The notes beneath the pieces are model-generated. The model saw only the letters and a list, made by a program, of their open reading frames with translations, ran no database searches and had not been told where the DNA came from. This document shows positions 12,077 through 27,476 of a stretch of 64,000 nt of DNA, piece by piece (positions within the stretch are counted from its first letter, which is position 1; every line of letters starts with the position of its first letter). The position numbers were made by a program, and so were the translations under genes. This DNA is from Waterburya sp. (lineage in GTDB: Bacteria; Cyanobacteriota; Cyanobacteriia; Cyanobacteriales; Xenococcaceae), in NCBI GenBank assembly GCA_965217895.1, contig CBDCJV010000002.1, positions 3,456,001 to 3,520,000 on the forward strand, written 5' to 3'.

Positions 12077-12150
12077 GGGACTGTAGTTCAGCTGGTTAGA
12101 ATGCCTGCCTGTCACGCAGGAGGTCGCGGGTTCGAGTCCCGTCAGTCCCG
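12077..12150 (+). tRNA. trnD: tRNA-Asp(GTC)
   Basis: GGGACTG/CAGTCCC acceptor stem, CCTGC-CTGTCAC-GCAGG anticodon arm, GGTTCGAGTCC T-arm, 74 nt. Confidence 0.97.
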
Positions 12151-12214
12151 TTCGTGCTAAATGCACTCACCTTATAGACTTCCCACCTTAACCTCCTGCG
12201 TAACAAGCAGGCAT

Positions 12215-12232
12215 TTACTCAAAACTTACTCA
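12215..12232 (+). repeat. Paired TTACTCA direct repeats, putative integrase arm-type sites (left end)
   Basis: TTACTCA at 12215 and 12226 (11-bp period); same pair at 27162/27173. Confidence 0.6.
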
Positions 12233-12312
12233 AAAATGAATATAGCAGTAGGACGAGGACGAGTGCAACGAGTACTTATGTACCCCAATTTATCGAGCGG
12301 TTAGATAAGCAC

Positions 12313-12352
12313 AAAAAAATGACGGGTTGCAAAATATCACAACTCCGTCATT
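12313..12352 (-). terminator. Putative intrinsic terminator for the leftward element operon
   Basis: AATGACGG-GTTG...CAAC-T-CCGTCATT hairpin followed by a T-run on the minus strand. Confidence 0.55.
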
Positions 12353-12475
12353 ATGTCAAATCTAGTATCTGAAATTTATCCTAACCTCTACTCGCACGAG
12401 AATGAGATTTAAGCTTAATGCACATCCTGTTAGGGAAGTAGTGGATTATTTCTATTTTCCCTTACCTCTATTAGT

Positions 12476-12739
12476 CTATTTTCGATCGTTTTCTAGCTTA
12501 TCTAGAATCTTATCCACCATCTTTTCTAGATAAATCAACCTTTCTTTTGACTCTTTAAAATCAAGATTATTTGATTTGTTTTCTAAGTGCTTTTTCTCCT
12601 GGTAGTCAAACCATTCTTCTATTATCAAATCTAGTGCCCTTGCATTACCTATTTTTTTGTCTATAGAAACGCCGTTTATTATTGCTCGAGCTTCTTCTGA
12701 CATCATAAATGTTCTAGGCTCAAAATTTTTCATACCCAT
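12476..12739 (-). CDS. Small ribbon-helix-helix-like DNA-binding protein with coiled coil
   Basis: RTFMMSEEARAII...ARALDLIIEEW; GGAGG RBS upstream; paralogous to 12887..13195. Confidence 0.55.
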   Translation of the reverse strand: MGMKNFEPRTFMMSEEARAIINGVSIDKKIGNARALDLIIEEWFDYQEKKHLENKSNNLDFKESKERLIYLEKMVDKILDKLENDRK

Positions 12740-12886
12740 AAAATTCCTCCAATACGTACAATTTATTTAACTTACTTAAAATCACTCAATCTGCTCTGAT
12801 TTTTTGCTATAAGCGTTGGTTTGACGGTATCTCAAAGCCAAAAAAGTTAGTTAGTTGAGTTAGAACCAAACAATGTACAATAGAGG

Positions 12887-13195
12887 CTATATAGCCTCTT
12901 CCTCCTTAGTCTCCCAGACATTAGTGTTGATTTCTGACCTTAGATCTGAGATCTCGTCATAAAGCTCAAAAGAGCGCCTCCAAAGAGATGATACTTTTTT
13001 GAGCAATTCCTCGTCATTGAAAGTGCGGTTTTGCTCGGCGTATTTTTGTCTCTGTTCAAACTCCCTCCACTCACGTACGATTACATCTAAAGCTCTACTA
13101 TCGTTGTCCTTTTCTTCAATGGACTTTATTTTTATTGCTTCTATTGTTTCGATATCCAGCGAAAACCCTTTGTGTAGCCTATTTCTTTTTCTCAT
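12887..13195 (-). CDS. Small ribbon-helix-helix-like DNA-binding protein
   Basis: KGFSLDIETIEAIK...SRALDVIVREW; AAGGAGG RBS upstream. Confidence 0.55.
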   Translation of the reverse strand: MRKRNRLHKGFSLDIETIEAIKIKSIEEKDNDSRALDVIVREWREFEQRQKYAEQNRTFNDEELLKKVSSLWRRSFELYDEISDLRSEINTNVWETKEEEAI

Positions 13196-13225
13196 GAGCC
13201 TCCTTTAGTGTTTGTATATTTCTAG

Positions 13226-13255
13226 AGCGTTGTACACTTCGTTGTACGTTTTTTA
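13226..13255. repeat. 30-bp element-internal repeat, copy 1 (AGCGTTGTACACTTCGTTGTACGTTTTTTA)
   Basis: Identical to 24808..24837; 24/30 match to 17190..17219. Confidence 0.9.
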
Positions 13256-13516
13256 CTTACGCCTACGCTTCTTACGCTTTTCCTTCTTAGTGAGTAATTT
13301 TTGAGTATCACCACCAGAATTTAAAAGACGTAGGTACGTTAACAGGTCTTCAAGCTGTTCATCGCTTAAAAGCAACCTAGAACGCTTCTCATAGCGTTTC
13401 TTGATGACAGATATGCAGGCTGTAGTAGACCAGCCTAAAATAGCTACTTCGTCATCTATCGCGTGCTTAAGTTCCCAAAAACTAACTCCGTCTAGTTTTT
13501 CTTTTTGTCTCTCCAC
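13253..13516 (-). CDS. Hypothetical phage protein with basic C-terminus
   Basis: 87-aa ORF in coupled leftward operon; LGWS...Y.KRSR..LSDEQL pattern. Confidence 0.6.
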   Translation of the reverse strand: MERQKEKLDGVSFWELKHAIDDEVAILGWSTTACISVIKKRYEKRSRLLLSDEQLEDLLTYLRLLNSGGDTQKLLTKKEKRKKRRRK

Positions 13517-13814
13517 TTTGTATAGAGTTGATTACGCTGTGTAAATGATGCAGTTGGCATTCCCAATCTACTACTAGTTTGTGATTTATTCTTTTGTCTC
13601 CTTTGAACAAAAAATAACTATCTATTTTTTTAGCCAGCCTTACAAAATCAGTAAACTCACACATAGCACAGTACATTATGTTTTGTACTTCTAGATTTCG
13701 CCTAATTCCAGCTTCGTCTCCATCTATATATGATTCAATGAAATAGTTGGTATTGTCTATCGCTTGATTCAATGCCAGGACGACAATTTCTAGTTCCTTG
13801 TCCGTAATTCCCAT
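13482..13814 (-). CDS. Hypothetical phage protein
   Basis: 110-aa ORF with AAGGAG RBS, in operon. Confidence 0.55.
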   Translation of the reverse strand: MGITDKELEIVVLALNQAIDNTNYFIESYIDGDEAGIRRNLEVQNIMYCAMCEFTDFVRLAKKIDSYFLFKGDKRINHKLVVDWECQLHHLHSVINSIQSGETKRKTRRS

Positions 13815-13821
13815 AATCTCC

Positions 13822-15015
13822 TTATCCTTTAGTCCATTTACCTTTTTGCAATCTCAATCCCAAATCAAGCAAACACTCTTTAGTGTCTCTTGGCTTAGGA
13901 GCTTCAAACAACCAACCTTGCTGTACCCACATATCTACTTGACCGCGTATTTGAGCTGTATAGAGTATCAGTTCCATGTTGGCGTTCAAGGCATTCTTGG
14001 TTTCAGTAGCTACAAAATCTCTAAGCAGACTACTTAACCCCGCGCTCTTTTCGGTTTCCCTTTTAAACCAAAACCAATAATCTCTCATCCTGTTAACTGC
14101 TTCCGTGTCGTCTGACCAGATACCAGTGGCAATCCCACAAGCCATCATGTCAAGGCTAATAGTTCTTTGTTGAGAACCTAGTCCTTTTACTGACTTGCTT
14201 AAAATACGCCTAGCAGTAACAAAAGTACTAGCTACGTCGATGTCCCAAAACTCATCATATAGCTTAGAGAACCCTTTCCAGCTATAAGCAGATATATCCA
14301 GTAACGCACTTTGCCAGTTATCATCGGTTATCCCTAACTCGATCTTACGATTGTCTGAAAGTTCCTCTACGCGACTACAAGGGATTACTATCAGTCGCCT
14401 CCTTAGTTCTTTAAAGCGATCGTCTAGATGCAGAGGTGAGATGCTAGAAAACACTTTAGGACAAAAGCACCTAAACTCTATATTGACTCCTGTTTCTTTA
14501 GACGAGACAACAATCTTATCTGTACTTTTGTCATACCCAAACTTAAACATATTGTACAGCTCTGGACTAGTGGTAAAGGTGTTAGCACTAACGTCATCCC
14601 AGACCATGCAGGTATTTCTTTCGACTGTCTTGTAAGGAGATTGATTTTCTCCTTCTGCTACTGGCACTTCCGCCCAGGCAGTCCTTCTTTCTTCTAAGCT
14701 GTTTCTTATGCCAGCAAAAGTATCACTACTAGAGTTAATAGGAACACCGTGTAGACAACTAGCCAGTTTAGCAAGCGTTGATTTGCCACTTCCCGATTGT
14801 CCGTTGAGGAACAAATAAGGAACAATCTTACACAAAGCAGAAGGGAGCATAAAGTAAGTAGCGATAATATCGTAAAAGTCATGAGGCAGAAATATTGTTT
14901 GCTTGAGGATGTTTAGCAAGTTTCCAGGAAGAGTCAAATTGTCACTATAAATTTCCCTCCAGGTGTCGCTTATGCCGTCCTCAGACACAAACAAGGTTGA
15001 GTAATCGTAAGCCAT
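13822..15015 (-). CDS. P-loop NTPase, probable replicative helicase-like protein
   Basis: Walker A GQSGSGKST, Walker B MVWDD, downstream ELRRRLIVI arginine-finger-like motif. Confidence 0.75.
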   Translation of the reverse strand: MAYDYSTLFVSEDGISDTWREIYSDNLTLPGNLLNILKQTIFLPHDFYDIIATYFMLPSALCKIVPYLFLNGQSGSGKSTLAKLASCLHGVPINSSSDTFAGIRNSLEERRTAWAEVPVAEGENQSPYKTVERNTCMVWDDVSANTFTTSPELYNMFKFGYDKSTDKIVVSSKETGVNIEFRCFCPKVFSSISPLHLDDRFKELRRRLIVIPCSRVEELSDNRKIELGITDDNWQSALLDISAYSWKGFSKLYDEFWDIDVASTFVTARRILSKSVKGLGSQQRTISLDMMACGIATGIWSDDTEAVNRMRDYWFWFKRETEKSAGLSSLLRDFVATETKNALNANMELILYTAQIRGQVDMWVQQGWLFEAPKPRDTKECLLDLGLRLQKGKWTKG

Positions 15016-15017
15016 AG

Positions 15018-15737
15018 TTATCTGATAATTGCCATTAACATCTCAAAGTAGATATCGGAAAAGCCTTCGCAGTCTTCGTTCTCTGTGTGAACTCGTCTTG
15101 TCAGAGTAGCCAAGGAATCTTCCTCGGTATAGCTAGTGTCTTTGATATCCGCAGTCATCTGCTTTTTAAGAAAAGCTAGTTTCTCTTCTATCGAAGCTCC
15201 TTTGCTATCCCCACCATTCTTCTTAAAACCACCGTTCGACGGTGGAGTATATTGCGGTAACTTACCGCTAAGATCGATGACCTCAGTTTTGGCGTTGGTT
15301 GCTACCAGTGCCTCCAGGCTAGCCCTGTCCATCGATGCACATATCCCGTTAGGAATAAAAGCAAGTTCTCCTTTGATACCACCAGAAGGAGGGATAAAAA
15401 AGGCTTCGTTTGTTTTGATATATTCGTACAAAGCCTTTTCAAAAACCGACGGTTGATACTTGATACCCTGCCAATTGCCGTTAGCATCTTTTTCTCTTAT
15501 TTCGTATTCTTGTCCGTAGATAGGTATGGCGCATAATCCAGGCACGAGTACTTCACTTGCTTTGAAGCTTCTGACGATGCCAGAATAACTAGTGACAAAA
15601 GCAGCGATAATGTAAGCATCATTCGTAGGGTATACTTTAGCTTCATCAAAGGTAACTTTGAAATATGTTTCTGCTTTGTCTCCTTTGAGTTTGCCATAGA
15701 GGTCGTCTTTGTAGGGGTCTAAATACTTTACTGTCAT
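15018..15737 (-). CDS. Hypothetical protein in replication module (possible ssDNA-binding/accessory)
   Basis: 239-aa ORF ending 2 bp before the NTPase start; function inferred from position only. Confidence 0.55.
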   Translation of the reverse strand: MTVKYLDPYKDDLYGKLKGDKAETYFKVTFDEAKVYPTNDAYIIAAFVTSYSGIVRSFKASEVLVPGLCAIPIYGQEYEIREKDANGNWQGIKYQPSVFEKALYEYIKTNEAFFIPPSGGIKGELAFIPNGICASMDRASLEALVATNAKTEVIDLSGKLPQYTPPSNGGFKKNGGDSKGASIEEKLAFLKKQMTADIKDTSYTEEDSLATLTRRVHTENEDCEGFSDIYFEMLMAIIR

Positions 15738-15770
15738 TACTGTTCTCGATATATGTTTGCGTTGAAATAA

Positions 15771-15992
15771 TTAGTAGATTGCCTCAGAGAGAATAGGGTA
15801 GAAAGAAGACAACTTCTTGAAATAATCTTCTTCCCCTATTTCGTGCAGCCTTTTATTTGTCACATACAACAGCTCGGCTACAAGCTGTTCTGGATTTTTG
15901 TTCTGTTCTAGTGCTAGTGTTTCAACCGCGTTTATAGCCAAGCCGATTAAAGTAACGAGTCGAACATCGTAAGGTGATTCTATTGGTGTCAT
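15771..15992 (-). CDS. Hypothetical phage protein
   Basis: 73 aa, start overlaps stop of upstream nuclease gene. Confidence 0.55.
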   Translation of the reverse strand: MTPIESPYDVRLVTLIGLAINAVETLALEQNKNPEQLVAELLYVTNKRLHEIGEEDYFKKLSSFYPILSEAIY

Positions 15993-16513
15993 CGTAATAT
16001 TTTTAATTTTCCTAACTCTTTTAAGGTCAGCAGATTTTTTTTGAAGTCGGACTCAAGCAGTGTTTTAACCATCTTGTTTTCAACTGGTAGCTTTTCAGGA
16101 AAGACAATTCTAAGCCTGCGGAAAATATTAAACCGAAGTTCTTCTAAGATTCCTAAGATAAGAGCAAATTCTGTTAAGAATGCACCTTTTGCCTCTACAA
16201 AAAGCAAAGGTTTGTTAGGTTGAGAATTATCAGAAATGGCAAAATCGACTTTCCATGTTTTCCCTCTTGGATAACAATAACTAGGCTTTAGTATTGATAC
16301 TGGTAACTGTCTAATTATCCTGTTTTCGCCGTACATTCTGCATAACTCTAGATATGTTTTAAACTCATGCTGGGAATCAAACCTCCAGATATGCTCAGGG
16401 AGTTTTAGCTTGCCTTTTACTCGATATATTTCTAAATTCCTAGAGTCAAGGACAGAACAGAGTTCTGTATTCCAAAAAACAGGCACGGCTTTATATTTTG
16501 GTCTCGCTGGCAT
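15989..16513 (-). CDS. PD-(D/E)xK nuclease, DUF1064-like
   Basis: FDSQHE...Y, WKVDF and FVEAKG motifs. Confidence 0.7.
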   Translation of the reverse strand: MPARPKYKAVPVFWNTELCSVLDSRNLEIYRVKGKLKLPEHIWRFDSQHEFKTYLELCRMYGENRIIRQLPVSILKPSYCYPRGKTWKVDFAISDNSQPNKPLLFVEAKGAFLTEFALILGILEELRFNIFRRLRIVFPEKLPVENKMVKTLLESDFKKNLLTLKELGKLKILR

Positions 16514-16824
16514 TAAGCAGATTCCTCGTAAGAGCGCCTCTTGTTGTCTAGAACCCCGTAGTAATTATCCCAAGCTTCGTCAACAAGATCTAGCACCCCT
16601 TCTTTGCCTAAAACAAAAAGTGTTTTGCAGATTCCTTTTCCTATGTAATTGATTACATATTGACGGTCGTAAATAACTTTAAACATGGTCGGTACTGGAT
16701 CGCCAATACGTCGAATACTTTTATTACACTCGTATCCAGCCTCGCTAACCATAGCGGGGTGCAAAGCTTTGATAAACTTATTACCCGTCATTTCTCGCCA
16801 GGTAATAGTCTCTATTTCAGGCAT
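16513..16824 (-). CDS. Hypothetical phage protein, first gene of leftward replication operon
   Basis: 103 aa; TAATG stop/start coupling with the nuclease gene. Confidence 0.6.
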   Translation of the reverse strand: MPEIETITWREMTGNKFIKALHPAMVSEAGYECNKSIRRIGDPVPTMFKVIYDRQYVINYIGKGICKTLFVLGKEGVLDLVDEAWDNYYGVLDNKRRSYEESA

Positions 16825-17189
16825 AGTTTTCTTATTGAATTGTTAGCTAAAGCTTTAAAGGCAATCTCTCAGAGCTTTGAATCAAAGGTAAGTAGATTTG
16901 ACTTTTTAAACTTAATCTACTATCGTTTTTTTTTTGACTCGCATCAGGAAAAATACGGAAATTTTAGCTAAAAATTGGCTTATTTTTTAAATAATTAAAA
17001 ATATTGTTTTTATTGTAAATAATAATTACATAACTATTGACGTTAGTGTTTTTAAAAGCAATTATATTAATAACCCTATTCCGCTTCGCTCCAAGGGAAA
17101 TATACTAGGGGTGGGTGGGCGTAGCCACAGGGAAATAATCACTTATATAAAAACTTTACTTGTTCTCTCTTCTAAGAACATCTTCTAAA

Positions 17190-17219
17190 AGCGTTCAACA
17201 CATCGTTCAACGTTTTTCA
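17190..17219. repeat. Variant copy of 30-bp element repeat
   Basis: AGCGTTCAACACATCGTTCAACGTTTTTCA; GT to CA change in both half-sites. Confidence 0.8.
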
Positions 17220-17228
17220 GATATACAT

Positions 17229-17651
17229 CTACTCACTAGTTACCTGCTTAATAATTTTCTTAGTAGCTGATATTTCTGTTTTTATCTCTTCTGTATTTTC
17301 TACCTCTGGCAATTCCTGAATCTCTTCTATCGCTCCCTGTAATCTTCCGTACCCTTCCTGTCCTTTTAAAGACTCCTCGTAAACCTTTCTTAGCTTCTCG
17401 TAAGCCTCGTCTTTTTGCCTAATAATCTCGGCCTGACTATCTAGCTTAGCTGCTACTTCTGTAAGTTTGTTCGCACTGCTGCCAATGATTAGTTGAGTAT
17501 TCGCTACCTTTAAGCCGACTTCAGGCGCACGAGCAACTCGTATCCCCAAACAGACAATAAACACAAAAACACCCCCAGAAAGCAAATTCAAGCTTAATGG
17601 AGGCAGTCGAGTAAAACCTTTAGTAATCATTGTTTTATAAATAAATTGCAT
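17229..17651 (-). CDS. Single-TM coiled-coil protein, possible lysis accessory (spanin/holin-like)
   Basis: N-terminal hydrophobic helix, coiled-coil C-terminus, overlaps lysozyme 3' end. Confidence 0.5.
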   Translation of the reverse strand: MQFIYKTMITKGFTRLPPLSLNLLSGGVFVFIVCLGIRVARAPEVGLKVANTQLIIGSSANKLTEVAAKLDSQAEIIRQKDEAYEKLRKVYEESLKGQEGYGRLQGAIEEIQELPEVENTEEIKTEISATKKIIKQVTSE

Positions 17652-18253
17652 TCGTCTTTTCTGCGGTTAACCAAACCAGGCAAAAGTTTTCCTCCTGCTC
17701 TAGTCCAACGACTAAACTCATTAAACGCTCTTTGATAGTCTTTTTGATTAAGTAGTTTAAGCAAAGTAGATTCACTAAACGCATCAATACCTACGTTAAA
17801 GGTAAAGCTAACTAAGGCATCAAACTGATTCTGATTTAAAGGCACGTCTACAAGCCTGAGTACAGCTTGTTCGTAAATTCTCAAGTCCTCTATAAGAAGG
17901 TTTTCAGCTTCAAGGTGACTAATCATCTGTCCTTGCTTTACTCCCTTAGTGTGTCCATAACCAATAGTCCAGACACCAGCGGGACAAAGATAAGCATTGG
18001 TTCTTAAGCCTTCCCACTTCTTGATCAGGCTTACGCCAATCTGCGAAGTCTTATTAGGTTTAATCGTTTTTTCATCAGGCTGTGTCATCCAGCCAACATA
18101 AGGCAAAGCTCCTTTAGGTCTAGGGGGGAGGTTTAAAACTTTTCTTGCTTCGGTATCGATTAGGTAATCAACACTCAGGCATTCGTCATCAGATGTTCTA
18201 CTTGTTATCGCTGCCATCGCCCGTTCCCGCATCTCCTTGATCGACAGGTTCAT
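17627..18253 (-). CDS. Phage lysozyme/endolysin (GH24)
   Basis: GVSLIKKWEGLRTNAYLCPAGVWTIGYGHT, LNQNQFDALVSFTFNVG, LPGLVNRRKDE. Confidence 0.95.
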   Translation of the reverse strand: MNLSIKEMRERAMAAITSRTSDDECLSVDYLIDTEARKVLNLPPRPKGALPYVGWMTQPDEKTIKPNKTSQIGVSLIKKWEGLRTNAYLCPAGVWTIGYGHTKGVKQGQMISHLEAENLLIEDLRIYEQAVLRLVDVPLNQNQFDALVSFTFNVGIDAFSESTLLKLLNQKDYQRAFNEFSRWTRAGGKLLPGLVNRRKDECNLFIKQ

Positions 18254-18731
18254 TTATTATTACTCCTGATACTGTTATTGTTTTTTCTAGATAGATAGGT
18301 ACACAGTAAAGTGTTAACGAATTCAAGTTAGCTAATGGAGAAATTAGTACCGTATCCCCTGGAGTTAAAGTAATAAAGTTTTGGTCGATAAATTCTTTAG
18401 TAGGCAGTAGAGAGCGACAAAATACTCTCTTTTCTAGCCTCACAATTGAAAAATAACAACTTGCATAACCTGCGTTATTGGCGTCTATATCAGAAACACT
18501 AATAAAGTCATCATCAGATTCAACGTCGCTACCTGCTGCTACTACCAAGTACTCCTTGCCCAAAATATCTTTTAAGTCAAACTGGTGTTGTTTGTTTGCT
18601 TTCAAGTCATAAAACACTATCGGCGTATAGCTTTCCAACTCCTTAGCTCTGTAAACCAACCCATCTTCTTTAAATACAGCAATCGAGTCAGTGCCATTGA
18701 GAATAATATCTTTTTTAATCGAACTTTCCAT
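18198..18731 (-). CDS. Hypothetical, candidate virion protein
   Basis: 177 aa beta-rich; coupled to 18731..19465. Confidence 0.55.
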   Translation of the reverse strand: MESSIKKDIILNGTDSIAVFKEDGLVYRAKELESYTPIVFYDLKANKQHQFDLKDILGKEYLVVAAGSDVESDDDFISVSDIDANNAGYASCYFSIVRLEKRVFCRSLLPTKEFIDQNFITLTPGDTVLISPLANLNSLTLYCVPIYLEKTITVSGVIINEPVDQGDAGTGDGSDNK

Positions 18732-19465
18732 TATAAAAACCCTAAATCTATTTGTAGTCTGCTGCCAATCACTTGTCTTAAAGCCTGTCCTTGGTCTGGT
18801 GGCAATAGCGCAGCTAATCCCTCAGCCAAGGTATATAATCCTGCGTCTGTTTGACTAATCCGAGTATTAAGCTGCGTTTCTCTAAAGTCATCAAGCTGTA
18901 TCTGGGAAGTTTCCCTCTCGCTTAGTTCCCTAAATTTATCCGTTATCAATTCCTCAATTACCGTTAGTTGTGCCTCAATCAAACCACTGGGTTGATTTGG
19001 ATCGATGCCTAGCACATTACCAATGCCGAACAAAGCATCCTCGACGAAGTTAAGCGTGTCACCTGTATATTCGTAAACCCTGATAGCCACATCTTTAAAC
19101 CAAAACGGCGGTGTATACCTAAGCCTAAACCTATCGGTACTAATGCGGTTTGTTTCGACTATCTGTAGCTTGTTAATAAACAAGCGGGTCGGAAGACTTT
19201 GAAGAACACTCGTTACGGGGCTATTACCACCAGGTACAAAATTGTAAACTTGCCTGATATCTCCTGCAAACTGCCAGCTAGGTTTGCCCGAGCCTGTTGT
19301 AGCTACGACAGCAATATAGTCAGAAAAAAGGCTAACGCCAAGGTCGATAGGAGGTATAGGGGTATGAGAATTTTCATTGATAATAGTAGCTGTTCTACTA
19401 GCATCGGCTACAATCCTCCAATCTTCAGAGTTATCAAAAAATATTAAGTCTTGTCCTGCTGGCAT
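18731..19465 (-). CDS. Hypothetical, candidate virion protein (beta-rich N-terminus, helical C-terminus)
   Basis: 244 aa in contiguous leftward block upstream of lysozyme. Confidence 0.6.
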   Translation of the reverse strand: MPAGQDLIFFDNSEDWRIVADASRTATIINENSHTPIPPIDLGVSLFSDYIAVVATTGSGKPSWQFAGDIRQVYNFVPGGNSPVTSVLQSLPTRLFINKLQIVETNRISTDRFRLRYTPPFWFKDVAIRVYEYTGDTLNFVEDALFGIGNVLGIDPNQPSGLIEAQLTVIEELITDKFRELSERETSQIQLDDFRETQLNTRISQTDAGLYTLAEGLAALLPPDQGQALRQVIGSRLQIDLGFL

Positions 19466-19471
19466 AACTGG

Positions 19472-19708
19472 CTATACCAATTTCATTTCTTCTAGATTGC
19501 CTTCAATAGTTTCTAGATAGCCGTCGATGTTCACTTGAGCGGTTTCAAGTAAATCGATGTACTCCTGAAAGCTAATTTTCTGAGCCAAAAAATCGTCCTT
19601 GGCTACTTCGACTATGGCATAGGTGTCCATTAATCTGTCTAGATCACTGTCGTTCATATCCCTAGTACTACCACCAGGGATAATTAGCTCTATTGCCCTA
19701 TCAAGCAT
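19472..19708 (-). CDS. Small acidic hypothetical protein
   Basis: 78 aa, 2-6 bp spacing to neighbours. Confidence 0.6.
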   Translation of the reverse strand: MLDRAIELIIPGGSTRDMNDSDLDRLMDTYAIVEVAKDDFLAQKISFQEYIDLLETAQVNIDGYLETIEGNLEEMKLV

Positions 19709-19710
19709 TT

Positions 19711-20274
19711 TTAATACTTCTCAGAATGAAAACTAGCTGAAGCAGTCGTAAGTGCTTCGACAGCAATAAGTATATCCCCTCTAACTTTGTTTTCTGCTTT
19801 TTCTGTTGCCGATGCACCATACGGGAAGGTAAAAGAATTGCCGATTCTCTTGCTGTATTTAATGCCCGTAATTTGACTAGTTGGTGATGCCGAACCTGTT
19901 CCGTAATCAAATACAGTTACCTGCGCAGGTTTAAAGCCCTGTATCTTGGTTTGACTTTCTGGGTCGTAAGTAACATGATTACAAGCACTTTGTACAGAGT
20001 CCAGAGTCGCTTTCTCATCTGCTCGTTTTGAAAGTGCTACGATTGCACCATTCGCAGGGTTTCCACCGAAGAAAAAAGGTAAAATGCCTGTTTTTAAAAT
20101 TTCACCAGGATTGCTATTATCGTCTCTGGAATAAACTAACTTAGTTTTCCCAGAAGCAAAGTCTTGAAAGTTTCTGGCAATTGTATTAGCAGGGGCATCG
20201 GGAGTGGGGGCGTTTGAGTTGGGAGTACGCAAAGTGGTCAAGGCATATTTTAATCTACTAAATCTTCTAGCCAT
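19711..20274 (-). CDS. Hypothetical, candidate capsid-type protein with basic N-terminus
   Basis: MARRFSRLKY N-terminus, 187 aa; structural role is inference. Confidence 0.55.
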   Translation of the reverse strand: MARRFSRLKYALTTLRTPNSNAPTPDAPANTIARNFQDFASGKTKLVYSRDDNSNPGEILKTGILPFFFGGNPANGAIVALSKRADEKATLDSVQSACNHVTYDPESQTKIQGFKPAQVTVFDYGTGSASPTSQITGIKYSKRIGNSFTFPYGASATEKAENKVRGDILIAVEALTTASASFHSEKY

Positions 20275-20391
20275 ATCTAATTATTGCTATTTTTATATAT
20301 TTACACTTTGTTTCTAACCTATCTGTCTTTGAATGAAAATGATTTGACTGGCAACTGATTAGAGAATCGACCTTTAAGGGCGCACACTTTT

Positions 20392-21210
20392 TTAAGCAAC
20401 CTCGATCGTTCTTGCTTTTGTCCCCGTTCTGTCTACTAAAATAAGCGGTTGAGTCAATCCTGGAATAAATAATTCTGCATAAGCAAATTTAACTGTGGCT
20501 ACGGGTCTTCGTTTTGGCTTCCTGACTACATCGCCCATGACTCGTACTGTTCCAGGTACATTGTAATTTTTTTTGTCTTCGTGGTATCTGAGAAAATTAT
20601 CCCAGTCTGGTTCGCTGTCATCTTGTATCCTAATTGCCTGCTCGATTATTTTCTTGGCGTCCGTTTCGTCATCTGTAGTGACGCTAAAAAAGTAACCTTT
20701 CTGTTTGTCTGCATAACTCCACAACTGTCTGCCTTTTCTGTAGAAAAAAACAGGTCTAGCAAAATCATTTAGTATTTTTAAAGCCAGTCGATTAATATTT
20801 GTTGTCGTATAATCTTCTTCTCTCCACCTAAAACTTACCTCGCTCCTAGCTGGTCTTCTTTCATTATCGGAAGCCTCATATTTGTCCTCTCTAAAGTGAA
20901 GCTTTACCTGTGGATAGTAGGTATTAGAAATCTCAAAGTCAGTGCTAGGAATACCGTAAACGTATTCATCTAATAAGTTTCCCGCTTCTACCCACCAGGT
21001 TAACATCCTGGCTAACGTAAGAGTCATTGTATCGGTGTCCTTATGTAGACAAATACGTTTAATTAGCTGTCTTGGCGCAGCCGTGCTAAGGCTAGCGTCA
21101 TCACTACCGTCAACGTCTCTAAAGTGCTTGTTTATAGCCTTGTTAAAGTAAGTTCTACAGTAACTTTGAAACATTTCAACATCTGGTTTACTCACAAGTT
21201 CGTTCCTCAC
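20392..21210 (-). CDS. Hypothetical phage protein (start may be the GTG of VSKPD, which has a GAGG RBS)
   Basis: 272-aa ORF; YGIP, PQVKLHFRED and RKPKRRP motifs. Confidence 0.7.
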   Translation of the reverse strand: MRNELVSKPDVEMFQSYCRTYFNKAINKHFRDVDGSDDASLSTAAPRQLIKRICLHKDTDTMTLTLARMLTWWVEAGNLLDEYVYGIPSTDFEISNTYYPQVKLHFREDKYEASDNERRPARSEVSFRWREEDYTTTNINRLALKILNDFARPVFFYRKGRQLWSYADKQKGYFFSVTTDDETDAKKIIEQAIRIQDDSEPDWDNFLRYHEDKKNYNVPGTVRVMGDVVRKPKRRPVATVKFAYAELFIPGLTQPLILVDRTGTKARTIEVA

Positions 21211-21447
21211 CTGTTCTAATTGGTATATTCATACTAACTTTTAATTTCAGGTGTTAATATTTTGTTTAGTTTCTGTTGTTCCAATAGATGCGCACTCTAA
21301 AAACGTGATAAGAAACAGGCACGCTCTAAAAACGCGTAGGGATAACTACTGATTCTTGTTTTTAAACTTTTTATCTGTCTTTTGTTTTTTTATCTGTCTA
21401 TCTAATTGTTTCTTAAGATACTGTAGTTCGATAACAAAAGCTTTCTA

Positions 21448-21897
21448 GTGCTACCAAGAGGATGGTTACAAACCAGACTCTTTCATCATTTAAATACCAG
21501 TCAAAATAGCAACAATTTAAAAGCACCCTTGGGAGAATTAGCTAGTAACACCCGATTAGATATCCCAAACACTACACCTACTACAACCAACAAATCATCT
21601 GTACCTACTGCTAGTAATGAGTTACAAAATAATAACTTTATAGACAAATCTCTTTGCGTATTTCATAACCATTTAGACTGGTTAAGTTTTACTTTTGAGA
21701 AGCTAAGTAAAGAGGAATTTAACCAATTAATTCAACTTACTGGTAGAGGATTAACCACGTTAGAAAAAAACAAATCCTGGTCTAGTGGTGAAAGAGCTAG
21801 AAGCTATCAAAACACTATTCACTCTGCTATCAGCTTAAAAGGTGCTTATAACTGCTATCAGGTAGAAAACAAAATAAGAAAAGTCGGTTTCCGATAA
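21448..21897 (+). pseudogene. Truncated N-terminal fragment of a Rep_trans-like replication initiator, copy 1
   Basis: SNTRLDI and HLDWLSFTF motifs, ends after 149 aa. Confidence 0.5.
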
Positions 21898-21954
21898 ATA
21901 GGCAAAAAAAAAGAAGCCCTGTTAAACAAGACCAACTTTCTTTACACAAAGACA

Positions 21955-22263
21955 ATGATAAATCCAAACAATCAAAATAGCAACCAGTAGTTTTCACCTG
22001 CCCAAAATAGCCCTAGTAATACCCCGCTAGATATCCGTTATACTCCACCCTTTTCTACTCATAGCTTTAAGTCACTTTTACTTTCTTCCTTAGACTCCCA
22101 GAATAAAAATAATATATTAAAAAATACTATTGATTATTTAAGAATTAGTAGTAGTAAATTAAGTAAAAGGTCTTTTGGAAACTTACTAGCTAACCTAGTC
22201 TTACCTGTACCTTGCTTTGAAAACAAAATACCTTTTGTCTATGATACATTAGTACTTGTTTGA
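21955..22263 (+). pseudogene. Second decayed paralogous Rep-like N-terminal fragment
   Basis: Manual translation MINPNNQNSNQ*FSPAQNSPSNTPLDI...TIDYLRISSSKLSK, in-frame TAG at 21988. Confidence 0.5.
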
Positions 22264-22300
22264 ATACTAACCTTAGTTACACCCAAAAGATATCTAAATA

Positions 22301-22609
22301 ATGACTCAAATTAACATTGCTACCGATATTCCAAGTCAAATCAATACTTTAGAACGCCTAGCTATGTGGTCGTGTATGGCATTGAGAAGAGTAAATCCAA
22401 CTTTAGCAGTCATTGAAATCGCCGACCAGACAGCCGAGAAGGTAGCGCAAACCGCTTTGGTACAGGCTGATGATGGAAAAATTAGGTTTATTGGCAGATT
22501 GAGCCTGGAAGTAGCAGCCGATTATGCAGAAGACAATACGGCAAAGCTTTGGACGAAAGCACTGGAGTTTAGCAATACTCAGCTACCCGCAGCCTACAAA
22601 GCAAACTAA
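22301..22609 (+). CDS. Hypothetical, candidate virion protein
   Basis: 102 aa, TAATG-coupled to 718-aa gene. Confidence 0.7.
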   Translation: MTQINIATDIPSQINTLERLAMWSCMALRRVNPTLAVIEIADQTAEKVAQTALVQADDGKIRFIGRLSLEVAADYAEDNTAKLWTKALEFSNTQLPAAYKAN

Positions 22610-24765
22610 TGGGCATTTATTCAAAATTTGTCAAAACACCTGGGGGGCAAACTAGATTTGTCGTCACGACTGAACCCCCTAGTATTTACGAAAGCTTTAG
22701 AAGTCCTATCCCCAAACCACCAAAACCACCTGTGTTGCTCAAGGGGGTAGGTAAGCTTCTAGGAATCCCTGCTTTAGTTCTTCTTGATTTTTTCTTTAAT
22801 AACAAGCCCTTGAGCGACGGAACGATCCCTCAATGGATTACGCAGATTGACGAGCAGCAAAAAATAGGCACAAAAAGCTATCCCCAGTCGCGTGACACCT
22901 ATTATCGCTTTGTTTATCGAGAAGCTAATCTTAATAACGGCGTGGTGACATGGGGTAATGACTACGTAAGGGTCAACTCAGATCGGTTTAACGGCATCCA
23001 GTCTTGGCGATTAAAGGCATTCTACAAAGGGATTGCCTCTTATCCAGCCGATAATAAATTTTTTACCTACGTTTACTATCCCAGCACAGGTAAATACGAT
23101 TCAAGACCAGCAGGTGAACGTAATGCTGATTATTATGTTGAGGTCGTTGATTTTTTAGGTGTAATAACAACTATCTACCTGGGTGGTACTAGCGGTCTAT
23201 GGGGACAAAGGTTTATTACAGTTGACAATATCCCTCAGCCCGAAATACAAGAAGATATTAAAACCAAAGCTAATAATCAGTTTGCAGCAGGATTAGCCTT
23301 AATCGATCTGCTTGGAGCTAAAGAATGGCAATTTGCAGGATTTAGTAAGCTGCCTAGCTTTGGTAATAACCAGTATCCTCAGATTGATTTTATTCCTCTA
23401 CCGACAATAAGTAATAAGCCAGGCATATTACCTACTCCTACACCTGTTCCTATACCCGACCCCGAGCCAAAGCCAGAAATAAAGCCAGAAATTAATGGTG
23501 GCACTAAAGAGATAATCGAACAAAAACAAGGACAAAAGAATGAATACCCCGATCTCGTTCCTGGCAAAAAATACATCAAGAGAATTACGACCAAGGATTC
23601 AGATGGAAAAATTATTAAGATTACTGTAAATCCTTCTGAAATATTAAACCCAACGCCTACACCAGTTCCCGACCCCAAACCAGTAAAAATTACCAAGACT
23701 CCCGACCCCGAGCCTAAAAACAATATTATTATTTTTACTCCTAATCCTGTTCCACCCCCTTCGATTAAGCAAGAAAAAATTACAGATAACGACCCTAAAC
23801 CATTCCCTCCGCCAATTATCCCCCCTGTCAAGCCACCCAATCAAACCGCGACAGATGACTGTGCTGGTTCGTGTGCAAATAGAGCTTTAGCACCAGGTTC
23901 ACCAGGGTTGCTAAATATTACAGGCTTATTAAATGGTTTGCTACTACAAGATCCTCTACTTAGAAGAATAGATACAACTACTACGACAACAAGAGACATA
24001 GTTTCTCATGCCGATTATGGTCTGTCTAAAATACAAAAATTCGCTAGTACCGCTTGGAAGGCTACCCACGGAGACAAGATCCTCAATGCGCTTACAACAG
24101 CGGTAGTTATTCATAACGGGGTAATGCTGTCTAGAGGATTGGGGAACAGTCTTGCTGACGTTGCTACCGTCACGCTTCAAGCCATGGGGCTTAAAGACTC
24201 GGAAGGTAAACCGTTTGACGTCCAACAGATAGTCAGTGAAAAACTAACTCAGATGATGCAAAGAATATTAGGTGCTGGAAACTACGAAGCACTCACTGCT
24301 AAACTGGCATCTTATAGTCGTGTCTACCAATCAGCTGCTAACTTAGCTGATTTAACCTTCAGTCTGTTTGATTCAGCTAGAAACATCGCAGAGGCTTCGG
24401 CTACTAATACAGGTAAGATAGGTAACGCTCTCAGGGAAGCTGGAGCGGTTTACGAAGATGCCTATGAAGAGATGTCCGAAAAATACAGTCCTCAGAACAG
24501 AGCAATGCGTAAGCTGTCGGGTCTGACTGAGAATGTAGAGGAGTTCACAGAAAAGGCAGACAGAATAGGCGAGGTAAGTAGTGAGGTAGTTGAAATCAGA
24601 GAGAGCTTTGCAGAGCTACAGTCAGAAAGAGAGGTGCTAAAGAATGAGGTTAACACCGCCTTAGATCTCAAGAAAGAAGAGAAAGACTTGGCTAAGGAAG
24701 ATGTTCAGACTAAAACAGATGTTAACGACATTGACTTTGACCCCGCTCTAGCTGAAGACAACTAA
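22609..24765 (+). CDS. Large Pro-rich/coiled-coil protein, candidate adsorption/DNA-delivery protein
   Basis: Aromatic beta-rich N-domain, PTPTPVPIPDPEPKP linkers, CxxxC, long helical C-terminus. Confidence 0.65.
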   Translation: MGIYSKFVKTPGGQTRFVVTTEPPSIYESFRSPIPKPPKPPVLLKGVGKLLGIPALVLLDFFFNNKPLSDGTIPQWITQIDEQQKIGTKSYPQSRDTYYRFVYREANLNNGVVTWGNDYVRVNSDRFNGIQSWRLKAFYKGIASYPADNKFFTYVYYPSTGKYDSRPAGERNADYYVEVVDFLGVITTIYLGGTSGLWGQRFITVDNIPQPEIQEDIKTKANNQFAAGLALIDLLGAKEWQFAGFSKLPSFGNNQYPQIDFIPLPTISNKPGILPTPTPVPIPDPEPKPEIKPEINGGTKEIIEQKQGQKNEYPDLVPGKKYIKRITTKDSDGKIIKITVNPSEILNPTPTPVPDPKPVKITKTPDPEPKNNIIIFTPNPVPPPSIKQEKITDNDPKPFPPPIIPPVKPPNQTATDDCAGSCANRALAPGSPGLLNITGLLNGLLLQDPLLRRIDTTTTTTRDIVSHADYGLSKIQKFASTAWKATHGDKILNALTTAVVIHNGVMLSRGLGNSLADVATVTLQAMGLKDSEGKPFDVQQIVSEKLTQMMQRILGAGNYEALTAKLASYSRVYQSAANLADLTFSLFDSARNIAEASATNTGKIGNALREAGAVYEDAYEEMSEKYSPQNRAMRKLSGLTENVEEFTEKADRIGEVSSEVVEIRESFAELQSEREVLKNEVNTALDLKKEEKDLAKEDVQTKTDVNDIDFDPALAEDN

Positions 24766-24807
24766 AATAACCTAAAAACACCAACGAGTTTATAGGCATT
24801 TCCAGAA

Positions 24808-24837
24808 AGCGTTGTACACTTCGTTGTACGTTTTTTA
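24808..24837. repeat. 30-bp element-internal repeat, copy identical to 13226..13255
   Basis: Direct sequence comparison, 30/30. Confidence 0.9.
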
Positions 24838-24848
24838 GATATGCCTAC

Positions 24849-25334
24849 CTACCTCTTCACCCAAACACCATCTTTTACCGCATAAGCTTCTAACTTCCGT
24901 TTGATTATTTTCCCCCTGGGTTTTTGAATACCGTGTCGCCACAGCTTGACCTTCCATTCACTTTGTCCCGTTATGGCTGCGATACGTTCATCATTCAAAT
25001 ACTTCGCATTTTCGTCTTGCTGTAAAGCCTTAATCTTGTCTAGTTCAGACTCTAAATACGCTACTTGCTCTTCTAACTCCTTTGTCCTCTCCAGTACCTG
25101 TACTGCTAGCTTATTAGCAGCCATAATGCCGTCTTCTGCTACAAGCCTCCACGCATCGAAGTCTCGATCCTCCATCAGACTCTTTGGTGTCTCGTCAATA
25201 ATCCCAGCACCTTTCTTAACCAGAGCCTCTAAAGCTTCAGATCTAGTCATCCTATGTTTGTCCGCATACTCGCTTATCAGTTCCTCTTCTGTAATATCGA
25301 AGTATCCCGCGATCGCCGTCTTATTCTCTTCCAT
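24849..25334 (-). CDS. Putative regulator: RHH-like N-terminus, coiled coil, HTH-like C-terminus
   Basis: YADKHRMTRSEALEALV; DERIAAITGQSEWKVKLWRHG. Confidence 0.55.
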   Translation of the reverse strand: MEENKTAIAGYFDITEEELISEYADKHRMTRSEALEALVKKGAGIIDETPKSLMEDRDFDAWRLVAEDGIMAANKLAVQVLERTKELEEQVAYLESELDKIKALQQDENAKYLNDERIAAITGQSEWKVKLWRHGIQKPRGKIIKRKLEAYAVKDGVWVKR

Positions 25335-25759
25335 AGCTTTGTCTCTCAGCTTCTACTGTTAAGCAATTATGTACTAAGTTTACTGTTTCACCTTCTGCTT
25401 CTATTGCTCTTAAAAACAGTCACGAAACACCCTAATCAGCGATGGTTACAAAATGGCTCGAAGCCGAAGAAAGTCAAGTGCTTGACCGCAGGTTTTTGAG
25501 GTACGAGAAACACTTTACGTTCGCAGGTGAAGAGGTATAATGCCATCGCTTGCTGATTGGGTTTGACTCAATACGCTTAATCTGAGATGCTATTCTTGCA
25601 AAGAGAATAATCTTGTACTTTATTAAATTAAAGCTAACCTTGATTTGTAAGCACCTCTTTGCACCCAAAGGTGCAGACAAACAATAAAAAAGACTCCTGT
25701 TAGAGAGCCTCTTTTTGATAAGCATATTGGTTTAATATATACCTAGTCCAGTAATGCAC

Positions 25760-27169
25760 CTATAGTAGCGCAAGAATCCCTTCCTTGTCCTTCTGGTAGA
25801 CGATTGACAGTATTTTAGCTGATATCTCTTTGTCTTCAGGAGAGGCAGCGCAGAGCCTCTTAACAGAAGCTAGTGCAGTAACGAAGTCAATAGCATTCTG
25901 GTTGGAGTTAAGTAACAAATCGATAGTTGTCTGCGTTGATTGTCTTTTCTTGTAGACGGATTCATTCATCTGTACTGTATGTCCCATCGATTGCGCTCTA
26001 ACTTCTTGAGGTATCCCCGCCTGTATCCCGTTGATATTAGCCAAGTGCCGTAAAGCGTGTGTCTGGGTAAAAGGAGCATTCCACTTAAGTAGTTTTTTAT
26101 AAGCACTTTTGTTGTAATAATTTGCCTTAGCTCTATCGCTACCATTCTGTACGCCAATTTCTGGTAGCAAAGGATTTTTAATATCTAGCAAGTCTATTAG
26201 GTTAGGATAGGCAGGCGGAATATTAGGACGCGCTATTCTGTAGCCTGTTTTAGTTGTAGTTTTAGTCGCGGTGAAACCAGATACAACTATTAGGTTGTTT
26301 GTGTTAGTAGCATCTGATAAGGACGGAATTATCACGCCGTCTTCTGTTTCAAAAGGAGTATACAAGTTAGATATTGCGAATACTTCATGAATTCTTAGTC
26401 CATAGATTATCTGTGTAGAAAAAACCCACAGCCAAGCTTTTCTTACGTCTATTCGAGCATTTGAACGAAGCTTGCTGCTAACTCCAAGCACTCTGTCTTT
26501 CCATTCCAAAAAGCTTTGTAATGTTATATTCTGAAGCTTTTTGTACTCAACTTGCATTACATCTATTTCGTCTAATTGGTCGATTAACGCTCGGTTATGG
26601 GCAAGCCTACATAAACGCTTCATAGAAGAAACGACACCTTTAAAAGTTTTTGTACCTTTCTTCTGTCTATCGATGACTTTTTGAATGTCAGCTAGGTTAA
26701 GCGTTTTATGGGTTGGAAGATATTTGTAAAATCTGCCGTAGGTATCATGCCAGCTTGACTGGTCACTAGGATTATCTTTATCCCTTTTCCTTTTTGTTCT
26801 ACTAGGTCTATCCCAAAAGTCATCCTCTACCTTTTTGATCGCTTCACCAAAAGTCAGCCTGTCATCAGCTAACTGAGACTCCTGTTTAATTTCTTTGTCG
26901 TACCACTGCCAGAATTCTGCTTCGGAAGCTAAGTTTTTTAACGCCTCCGCTACTTTGTTAGATTTTTTAAGAGCCTCTACCATCCCGTCTAAGGTAAATG
27001 TACAGCCACAGGCATAAGGCTTTCTAGCTGTATTAGGAGTCTTAAACTGCAAGTAGATGTTTTGACCTTTGCGAGTCATACCTACACCTCTAGGCGTTTG
27101 CTTCTGGTATCTACTGAAGTCAGATAATAAAGTCTCGTATCCTATCTCGTCTGTGTAATCCTTACTCAT
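25760..27169 (-). CDS. Tyrosine recombinase/integrase
   Basis: Catalytic set present: GLRIHE (R), TKTG (K), HALRH (HxxR), MGH, VY (Y). Confidence 0.92.
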   Translation of the reverse strand: MSKDYTDEIGYETLLSDFSRYQKQTPRGVGMTRKGQNIYLQFKTPNTARKPYACGCTFTLDGMVEALKKSNKVAEALKNLASEAEFWQWYDKEIKQESQLADDRLTFGEAIKKVEDDFWDRPSRTKRKRDKDNPSDQSSWHDTYGRFYKYLPTHKTLNLADIQKVIDRQKKGTKTFKGVVSSMKRLCRLAHNRALIDQLDEIDVMQVEYKKLQNITLQSFLEWKDRVLGVSSKLRSNARIDVRKAWLWVFSTQIIYGLRIHEVFAISNLYTPFETEDGVIIPSLSDATNTNNLIVVSGFTATKTTTKTGYRIARPNIPPAYPNLIDLLDIKNPLLPEIGVQNGSDRAKANYYNKSAYKKLLKWNAPFTQTHALRHLANINGIQAGIPQEVRAQSMGHTVQMNESVYKKRQSTQTTIDLLLNSNQNAIDFVTALASVKRLCAASPEDKEISAKILSIVYQKDKEGILALL

Positions 27170-27206
27170 TTCTTACTCACTTTGCTTGCAATGGTTAACG
27201 AGTAAG
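27162..27206 (+). repeat. TTACTCA pair plus inverted GAGTAAG, putative arm-type sites overlapping integrase start codon
   Basis: TTACTCA at 27162 and 27173; CTTACTC on minus strand at 27200..27206. Confidence 0.6.
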
Positions 27207-27246
27207 CGTTTGAGAGAACGCTATTGCGCTGGTTAGTCGGTCTACT

Positions 27247-27275
27247 GGGAGTTCAAGTCTCCCTACCCCCACTCG
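27247..27275 (+). other. tRNA-like 3' fragment (T-arm plus acceptor 3' strand), putative right attachment site
   Basis: GGGAG-TTCAAGT-CTCCC-TACCCCC-A; not tRNA-Asp sequence. Confidence 0.65.
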
Positions 27276-27476
27276 ACATAAAGTCTTTTGTTGAAAAGGA
27301 TTTAAGACTGTCAGGTTAGATGACATTATTTTGTTAAGACGACAAATAATTAGTGAATGTACATTTGTATCCCCTTAATTTGCTTTTTAAACGAGTTATC
27401 GTAGAATAACAAAAATGAATGGCTTGCTAGTTGCCGCTAACAAGCCAAAGACAATTAAGACCAACCTAAGTTTGTT

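Follow-up and report, generated by a model that had tools for sequence, protein, structure and literature searches.

A Family of Small Temperate Mobile Elements in Cyanobacteria with Lysis Genes and a Conserved Core of Unrecognized Protein Families

A 64,000-nt stretch of the genome of Waterburya sp. (GenBank assembly GCA_965217895.1, contig CBDCJV010000002.1, positions 3,456,001 to 3,520,000; hereafter the window) carries a discrete 15.1-kb element (window positions 12152-27271) with 21 open reading frames (ORFs), 18 of them on the minus strand. Integration, a circular form, variable regulators, depletion of the HIP1 motif and near-identical copies with different regulator regions show that it is a mobile temperate element and not a remnant. 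Judging from integrated and circular sequences, the family inserts by means of a tyrosine integrase into the 3' end of tRNA genes, and relatives excise to a circle. No Pfam, PHROG or NCBIfam model covers the core of the family, and no member was found in IMG/VR or among the deposited phages searched. We tentatively favor the view that the element belongs to a large lineage of small (8-15 kb) temperate cyanobacterial viruses with an unrecognized virion module. A virus is ranked first because the core is retained where replication genes and integrases have been swapped, because two core proteins are built as an anchor plus a variable part, and because a hydrolase is kept by non-orthologous replacement. 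A first-pass annotation had described a compact, temperate phage-like element of about 15 kb; its measured extent and its own lysis genes agree with that description.

A Family of Compact Elements

The DNA of the element begins directly after the end of a tRNA-Asp gene, the position at which relatives carry their target tRNA. At the right end lies a 25-26-nt fragment of the 3' end of tRNA-Leu(taa), which ends at 27271, about 75 nt past the integrase start. The G+C content is the same as that of the surroundings. The sharp depletion of HIP1 (GCGATCGC) reported in the first-pass annotation is confirmed, with one site in the element, where 19.2 are expected, and 62 in the rest of the window (Poisson P ~1e-7). 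When all 21 ORFs were searched against Pfam, PHROGs and NCBIfam, the only families recognized were a GH24 lysozyme and, more weakly, the tyrosine integrase; about 17 of the 21 could be assigned to no family, and the earlier count of about seven unrecognized ORFs was too low.

The hallmark protein of the family, g16 (genes are numbered as in Table 1), has 108 close homologs, nearly all of 267 aa, in Pleurocapsa, Chondrocystis, Hydrococcus and metagenome contigs, many of which are 14.3-15.4 kb long; 49 g16 sequences form alignment A1. Scans with g16 yielded 23 related loci (designated L plus a number), four in genomes and 19 in metagenomes, of which 10 keep at least eight window genes in the same order and the remainder are short contigs. 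A profile made from A1 detected g16 in 67 of the 301 sampled genomes of the host order (63 of the 282 of high quality), representing 44 of 119 genera, and in six of 13 genomes of the host's own genus, this genome not counted. Against 1.84 billion cluster representatives the g16 profile gave 565 matches at E<=1e-3, 448 at <=1e-10 and 207 at <=1e-30, and the representatives listed are mostly of 260-290 aa. An element without conserved synteny elsewhere, which the first-pass annotation had named as the result that would undo it, is ruled out by the 10 collinear loci, the 67 genomes and the circles with an attP site described below.

Eighteen further relative regions were added for distant types. 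Elements from other families of the order are shorter, at about 8-10 kb, and encode an integrase of about 190 aa (PF00589), HTH_3 regulators and, once, a DdrB-like protein, together with g18-g19-g16-g15-g14-g13 (N-terminal domain of g13), collinear and on one strand. Genes g05-g09 are absent from these 8-10-kb relatives, and the endolysin is of another family (Peptidase_M15 in L046; phrog_3000/endolysin in L060). This non-orthologous replacement of the endolysin downstream of the core therefore points to selection on lysis itself. In a third type the C-terminal domain of g16 lies inside a protein of 370-530 aa.

That the element is a decayed tailed prophage, deprived of its head, tail and packaging genes, is very improbable. 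An integrase, a GH24 endolysin and a tRNA site are common features of prophages, but 10 of the 23 loci carry this same compact set of genes and g16 spans 44 genera; there are circular contigs of 14.5-15.2 kb that look complete; the ORFs show no disruption and are closely coupled; this genome's two copies share 99.4% identity over 13.7 kb; and no fragment of a tail or head gene was seen in or beside the relatives scanned. The first-pass annotation had reckoned with the possibility of an ordinary prophage with deletions, and no match to head, packaging or tail-tube/sheath proteins of Caudoviricetes was found in the element or the relatives scanned.

Integration and Excision

The integrase is divergent; it matches no Pfam model (PF00589 included) and no NCBIfam model. 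Its orthologs in L006, L007, L008, L018 and L024 are all of 469 aa and 56-66% identical, and catalytic motifs of the R..HxxR..Y type (GLRIHE, HALRH and VYKK) can be read by eye. The intact tyrosine integrase proposed earlier is thus upheld by its full length, by the phrog_1 match and by these motifs.

The 59-nt spacer of the left att arm (12152-12210) contains an inverted copy of the tRNA-Asp anticodon arm, and we read the ACTCAAAACTTACTCAAAA repeats that follow as putative integrase arm sites. The left arm is kept in L006, L017, L007 and the circular contig L018. TTACTCA sites are repeated on both arms and are conserved in L018, whose right-arm layout is also alike. Direct repeats of the tRNA 3' end (23-27 nt) occur 75-100 nt upstream of int in four of the six integrated copies tested, a test that skipped L017, a contig without int; beside int in L023 and L025 no tRNA direct repeat of at least 11 nt was found. 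The targets of integrated relatives are tRNA-Leu(tag), Ser(gct), Ser(gga), Leu(gag), Leu(taa), Val(tac) and Pro(cgg).

The 14,522-nt contig L018, with the order g08-g05-g03 / int-g20-g19...g16...g10, aligns to the integrated relative L008 as a circular permutation. At its junction the P arm, the 3' end of tRNA-Ser(gga) and the P' arm with ACTCAARACTTACTCAAAA repeats are joined, and by this arrangement L018 is read as an excised circle with a restored attP. The L018 attP also has an inverted repeat around the tRNA-Ser fragment, comparable to the spacer copies in the window element and in the second genomic copy. In L019 and L013 g03 adjoins int as in L018, but the integrase is of another type. 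Circularly permuted metagenome contigs with attP are about 14.5-15.2 kb in length. The closed replicon CP019638.1 (15,633 bp, from a Nostocales culture), which bears a g19-g16-g15 module, is a further circle in the family.

The second copy in this genome (L004, C2:219-15443) abuts a complete tRNA-Leu(taa) gene. The two copies are identical from about 17.8 kb to 27489, a 9.8-kb stretch, except for one 4-nt indel in the integrase gene (26989-26992), which shortens the L004 integrase to 407 aa and may be an assembly error, since the contigs of the sequencing runs list no such deletion. Across the regulator region (12.2-13.8 kb) their sequences differ or have been rearranged, and differing regulator regions in otherwise near-identical copies look like those of heteroimmune prophages. 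Identity extends 218 nt beyond the att fragment and halts exactly at contig base 1. At the left end of L004 the tRNA-Leu(taa) lies 62 nt from the conserved arm, comparable to the spacing of tRNA-Asp in the window copy, and the L004 spacer (15297-15357) holds an inverted copy of the tRNA-Leu variable arm. The spacers mirror each copy's own tRNA, so that each left end is fitted to a different tRNA, while both right ends are of the Leu type.

The tRNA-Leu(taa) fragment occurs three times in the genome, twice flanking L004 and once at the right end of the window copy, and no tRNA-Asp fragment was found elsewhere in the genome. As assembled, the window copy has tRNA-Asp on its left and the tRNA-Leu fragment on its right, and its ends share no core. 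The host genes to its right (27460-28450) also flank L006, at a tRNA-Leu site, and the tRNA-side flank of L006 matches the flank of neither genome copy. The window copy thus either arose from a Leu-type provirus and an Asp-type one, by recombination or inversion, or results from mixed strains having been merged in the assembly. Two sequencing runs hold DNA of the element; they derive from one sample, which may be the source of the assembly, and no RNA run is listed among the runs with element DNA. In the run contigs the host flank 27976-28430 is present in two variants at about 50:50 depth, and alternative sequence at about half depth is found at module borders (22231->24806, 18016 and 13468->13812), the joint 22231->24806 representing a variant in which g18-g19 is replaced. 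These alternatives indicate that more than one strain was present in the sample, along with more than two variants of the element.

Operon Plan and Lysis Cassette

A 41-nt repeat (A-tract, 8-bp hairpin and T-tract) is present at 13226-13266, 17190-17230 and 24808-24848, and its hairpin is kept with different sequences in eight related loci; we read these repeats as probable bidirectional terminators. They bound four blocks: g01 and g02; g09-g03, an operon whose genes include the NTPase, the resolvase-like nuclease and three unknowns; g16-g10, an operon that ends with the lysozyme gene and g10; and g20 with the divergent pair g18-g19. The genes are thus organized as a variable set of regulators (g01-g04 and g20), an operon for replication that runs from g09 to g05, and a "late" operon that runs from g16 to g10.

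The lysozyme predicted earlier is a full match to the GH24 profile (PF00959, 6.2e-52), and the protein carries a 65-aa N-terminal extension. Gene g10 is always translationally coupled to it; with its membrane helix and coiled coil the g10 product may be holin-like or spanin-like.

The Conserved Core

The collinear genes g18-g19-g16-g15-g14-g13 may constitute the virion module, the structural module of its own that the first-pass annotation had proposed for the element. The start of g16 is probably five codons inside the annotated ORF, since its homologs are of 267 aa. A confident AlphaFold model of g16 has a helical domain and an alpha/beta domain; among 62 diverse members (of 150 listed) only P100, G160 and Y166 are invariant, and no Pfam family recurs among the diverse members. 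A role for g16 as a rolling-circle initiator was considered because of the invariant Tyr in a YxDK context and was rejected; there is no HUH motif, and no HUH or Rep_trans fold is among the matches of the model. Protein g15 is replaced in L023 and L024 by two proteins of about 120 aa; it has no usable match in the ESM Atlas, and a predicted complex of four g15 copies scored 0.29 against a mark of 0.42, a result that speaks neither for nor against self-assembly. Profiles of g15, g05, g06, g16 and g13 compared with the PDB gave nothing above P-loop or chance matches.

The N-terminal domain of g13, which appears beta-rich by eye, is present in 16 of 16 aligned family members with W16, W64, G68 and W122 invariant, and the g13 profile has no match in Pfam or the PDB. 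What comes after it differs among members and can be a coiled coil, an unrelated beta domain or an acidic tail, or be missing altogether. Protein g19 consists of a variable N-terminal part, a Pro-rich linker and a conserved C-terminal part of about 280 aa; only residues ~410-718 are common to the loci, and the N-terminal part is exchanged between close relatives. Alternative g19 N-termini match tail-fiber PHROGs in three of 12 orthologs and in L055 (best 1.5e-11, in an Ala-rich coiled coil), matches to which composition may contribute. Both g19 and g13 are thus an anchor domain with a swappable domain, a build like that of adsorption proteins. The small g14, whose position and size are conserved in all types, could be scaffold-like or chaperone-like, which is a guess. 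By eye, no signal peptide is present at the N-terminus of the core proteins, and a hydrophobic helix is found only in g10 and perhaps at the N-terminus of g19.

Viruses, Satellites or Plasmids

The first-pass annotation recognized no head, tail or packaging genes, and this is borne out. None was found among the 21 ORFs, and 276 proteins of relatives (127, 79 and 70 in three scans) include no capsid, portal, terminase or tail-tube/sheath family; the scan of 127 proteins left out the orthologs of g11, g16, g21 and g23, L014, which is a duplicate locus, and two references that contain internal stops. The hallmarks of Caudoviricetes and of inoviruses are, as had been stated, not visible to profile searches: no TerL, by which Caudoviricetes would be known, was detected in the 21 ORFs or the 276 proteins, no profile matched an HK97 fold or a portal, and the models of g16 and g15 have no HK97 match. 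No Zot-type ATPase, expected of Tubulavirales together with a small hydrophobic major coat protein, was detected in the ORFs scanned. A lysis cassette is atypical for Tubulavirales. Neither g16 nor g15, both alpha+beta proteins, is a jelly roll; the N-terminal domain of g13, whose profile has no PDB or Pfam match, and the protein g12 look beta-rich by eye, and the former is the best jelly-roll candidate. No ATPase of the A32/FtsK-HerA type was identified, and the g05 profile gave only P-loop-level matches in the PDB (best E 0.0077). A packaging role for g05 was dropped, its weak signals being of the superfamily 3 (SF3) type.

If the elements are viruses, g19, with its fiber-like swappable N-terminus, and g13, with its swappable C-terminus, would be adsorption or vertex proteins, g14 would be an assembly factor, and g15, g16 and/or the N-terminal domain of g13 would build a shell of a fold type new for capsids; particles would assemble in the cytoplasm and leave by lysis. 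The bolder proposal is a virus lineage outside the established realms and unseen by current virus-detection pipelines, with a new capsid architecture in which a shell whose fold class has no precedent among capsids (g15, g16 and/or the g13 N-terminal domain) packages an 8-15-kb circle without a known packaging ATPase. We regard it as conceivable and rather unlikely.

Several observations weigh against a virus. No shell or packaging protein is among the identified genes; the 21 and 276 proteins scanned gave no match to a capsid, a portal, a terminase or an ATPase of the A32/FtsK or Zot type; and the confident AlphaFold models of g16 and g15 matched no solved or viral fold and no known capsid fold. 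The sole NTPase, g05, looks replicative rather than packaging and is absent from the small relatives. In IMG/VR, pattern matches yielded no confirmed relative (0 of 50 for the g16 alignment, 0 of 26 for the g05 alignment and 0 of 33 for the small-type g16), and deposited phages gave no match in a whole-element DNA search and none by tblastn of g05 and g16. The g19-g16-g15 core is also found on a ParAB plasmid (CP019638.1). The window copy may be unable to excise as assembled, because of its mismatched tRNA-Asp and tRNA-Leu ends, and the circle junction is absent from the 10 joints listed for the run contigs, a weak negative because contigs drop rare forms.

A new type of phage satellite, able to integrate, excise and replicate itself but borrowing its capsid from a helper cyanophage not yet known, with core g18-g13 redirecting helper assembly or supplying retargeting fibers, is possible, if on the unlikely side. 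With its size of 8-15 kb and its arrangement of integrase, regulators and SF3-like NTPase the family is reminiscent of P4 and phage-inducible chromosomal islands (PICIs), no capsid or packaging gene is recognizable, and the folded core proteins g16 and g15 are not capsid-like. Borrowing a helper capsid would explain the missing genes, but not the lysis and fiber-like modules: helpers normally supply lysis, yet endolysins are retained here and replaced non-orthologously, and a six-gene core with adsorption-like mosaic proteins exceeds the hijacking modules of known satellites. No homolog of the terS, capsid or size-redirection genes of known satellites was seen in the window or relatives. The 99.9%-complete host genome has no detectable TerL (PF03354, PF03237) or HK97 capsid (PF05065), so no resident tailed helper is seen; this argues only against a resident helper, and a lytic one would escape such a search.

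Like the element, satellites of the P4 and PICI types are small, have their integrase at a tRNA gene and use an SF3-type NTPase in replication. The combination of an integrase with a replication initiator or helicase is found here (phrog_1, 6.7e-8; g05, weakly SF3-like), and genes for exploiting a helper (terS, capsid, Sid/Psu/Cpm-like) are found neither in the window nor in relatives; the family also differs in having no primase domain, its own lysis cassette and fiber-like mosaic proteins. By their description in Hackl et al. (10.1101/2020.12.28.424599), the PICI-like tycheposons of Prochlorococcus carry a recognizable terS or major capsid protein gene. Compared by that same description, tycheposons are alike in being cyanobacterial and mosaic, in using a tyrosine recombinase and a helicase replication module and in inserting at tRNA genes with a partial tRNA repeat; in contrast, the present family has no detectable terS or capsid gene and possesses a six-gene core of unrecognized folds together with endolysins.

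A non-viral integrative or plasmid-like element, or a protein complex released by lysis or another cell-to-cell device, is about as unlikely as a satellite, or slightly more so; the core would then be a surface/adhesion, transfer or bacteriocin-like apparatus, and the circles would be plasmid forms. No viral hallmark was found, and the core does occur on plasmids of Nostocales HT-58-2. CP019638.1 (L062), possibly the family in plasmid-borne form, combines on a closed circle of 15,633 bp ParAB and g19-g16-g15 homologs with an integrase, a nuclease and a protein of 1,664 aa, and a 37-kb plasmid of the same strain holds a small-type element. In the plasmid collection, however, these two replicons of one strain were the only g16 matches, and tblastn of g05 against plasmids gave none. 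No relaxase, type IV secretion system, coupling protein or secretion signal was seen in the Pfam, PHROGs and NCBIfam searches or by eye, and the fiber-like modular swaps and the temperate-phage logic of the operons (an immunity-like variable region, replication genes and a late operon ending in a lysis cassette) speak against an apparatus of this kind.

Among viruses, the PM2-like corticoviral prophages and Thermus IN93/P23-77 (Matshushitaviridae) have a jelly-roll capsid and a packaging ATPase of the A32/FtsK type. They resemble the present elements in a circular 10-19-kb genome, in integration by some of them, in lysis genes, in spikes that combine an anchor with receptor-binding domains and in often being omitted by prophage finders; they differ in that no A32/FtsK ATPase was found here and g16 and g15 are not jelly rolls. 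The temperate pleolipoviruses (SNJ2) and Plasmaviridae L2 are membrane vesicle viruses with lysis-free release and multi-pass membrane proteins. They are alike in being small and integrating, in having no classical capsid and in a large spike protein beside small conserved proteins of unrecognized fold; they differ in that here a hydrophobic helix is confined to g10 and perhaps the N-terminus of g19, and endolysins are conserved. No description of the family was found in the literature, although supplements outside the search could list such elements.

Regulators, Replication Genes and Structured Non-coding Elements

The g01-g02 region, a candidate immunity region, is the most divergent between the two copies in the genome and has detectable homologs only in L023; neither protein matched a family in the three collections. 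Protein g03 is found in nine loci (L004, the genome's own second copy, L006, L008, L013, L014, L018, L019, L023 and L053). Its first 60 residues align with the C-terminus of the NCBIfam slr1353 family (1.6e-8, short of the cut-off for that family), which ties the element to a family of uncharacterized cyanobacterial proteins. Gene g20 is kept beside the integrase gene in L004, L006, L008, L018, L022, L023 and L053; its product has no significant family match in the same collections and, from its ribbon-helix-helix (RHH)-like and helix-turn-helix (HTH)-like ends, is a candidate repressor or excision regulator. The RHH-like regulators of the first-pass annotation (12476-13195 and 24849-25334) gained no profile support and remain a sequence pattern.

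The Walker A motif of g05 bears out the NTPase annotated earlier; the SF3-type signals are only weak (PF00910 in eight of 10 orthologs, best E 0.0067; phrog_1139 "DNA primase", 0.002). The nearest Atlas clusters are cyanobacterial hypothetical proteins, one with DUF3631 on 12% of its members, and identity among loci is 60-71%. The protein is probably an SF3-like replicative helicase or initiator. The order g06-g09 is kept in nine loci, and g06 has no match in Pfam, PHROGs or the PDB (profile search). For g08, the "DUF1064-like" assignment has no match of its own behind it; the nuclease part is supported through the L017 ortholog, which matches phrog_190 (Holliday junction resolvase, 1.3e-6).

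Homologs of g12 are present in L004 (100% identity), L006 (48%), L007 (25%), L053 (52%) and L054 (48%), and unrelated ORFs of 95-160 aa occupy its position in L008, L018, L023 and L024.

Two intergenic stretches exceed their flanking genes in DNA conservation. That at 17040-17150 has 72-88% DNA identity in nine loci, with five of 10 predicted pairs compensatory, and is a candidate origin or leader; one of its hairpins contains GCGAAGC, a very stable DNA mini-hairpin of single-stranded DNA phage origins. For that at 25405-25560, a candidate regulatory RNA or DNA structure, 29 pairs are predicted in eight loci, 12 of them compensatory. Rfam gave nothing for either at E<=1.

Beyond the right end of the element (27460-27612, minus strand) a 50-aa lysine/alanine-rich ORF adjoins a 232-aa multi-pass membrane protein; both are host genes, and both are kept beside the element in L006 (85% and 93% identity).

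Table 1. Features of the element and its left border, in window coordinates
Feature	Position	Strand	Remarks
tRNA-Asp(GTC)	12076..12151	+	ARAGORN; Rfam tRNA, 71.3 bits; abuts left end of element
Left att arm (P')	12152..12330	.	59-nt spacer, then ACTCAAAACTTACTCAAAA repeats; read from sequence
g01	12476-12739	-	87 aa; small variable regulator
g02	12887-13195	-	102 aa; small variable regulator
g03	13253-13516	-	87 aa; conserved, basic C-terminus
g04	13482-13814	-	110 aa
g05	13822..15015	-	397 aa; P-loop NTPase; Walker A GQSGSGKST, Walker B
g06, g07, g08, g09	15018..16824	-	239, 73, 174 and 103 aa; rest of replication/recombination operon
g08	15989-16513	-	174 aa; PD-(D/E)XK / resolvase-like; L017 ortholog matches phrog_190
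Structured non-coding element	17040..17150	-	~70 nt within g10-g09 gap; C-rich tract, two hairpins
g10	17229..17651	-	140 aa; one N-terminal transmembrane helix and coiled coil, read from sequence
g11	17627..18253	-	GH24 (T4-type) lysozyme; PF00959 6.2e-52, profile positions 1-125 (full); phrog_7 endolysin 2.9e-62
g12	18198..18731	-	177 aa; variable late-operon protein
g13	18731..19465	-	244 aa; universal ~145-aa N-terminal domain; swappable C-terminal part, coiled coil here
g14	19472..19708	-	78 aa; acidic, apparently helical
g15	19711..20274	-	187 aa; core; basic N-terminal helix and ferredoxin-like beta-alpha-beta-beta-alpha-beta domain
g16	20392..21210	-	272-aa ORF; hallmark; homologs 267 aa
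g17	21448..21897	+	149 aa, GTG start; doubtful gene; only match is in the genome's own L004
g18	22301-22609	+	102 aa
g19	22609-24765	+	718 aa
g20	24849..25334	-	161 aa; RHH-like N-terminus, HTH-like C-terminus as read from sequence
Structured element	25405..25560	-	~135 nt, between int and g20
Tyrosine integrase (int)	25760..27169	-	469 aa; divergent; phrog_1 6.7e-8, residues 75-406
Right att arm (P)	27170..27271	.	TTACTCA / TGAGTAA sites and tRNA-Leu(taa) 3'-end copy

Implications

If these elements are viruses, about one-fifth of the sampled genomes of a major cyanobacterial order would hold a type of provirus missed by the catalogs, with a new hallmark gene set and perhaps a capsid architecture not seen before. 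Should they be satellites instead, cyanobacteria would harbor a new type of satellite that brings its own modules for lysis and adsorption. The family supplies two conserved structured non-coding elements with covariation and integrases aimed at various tRNA genes (Leu, Ser, Val and Pro), and its small self-replicating circles are possible tools for cyanobacteria that are hard to manipulate. Protein g16 provides a defined marker with which such elements can be found.

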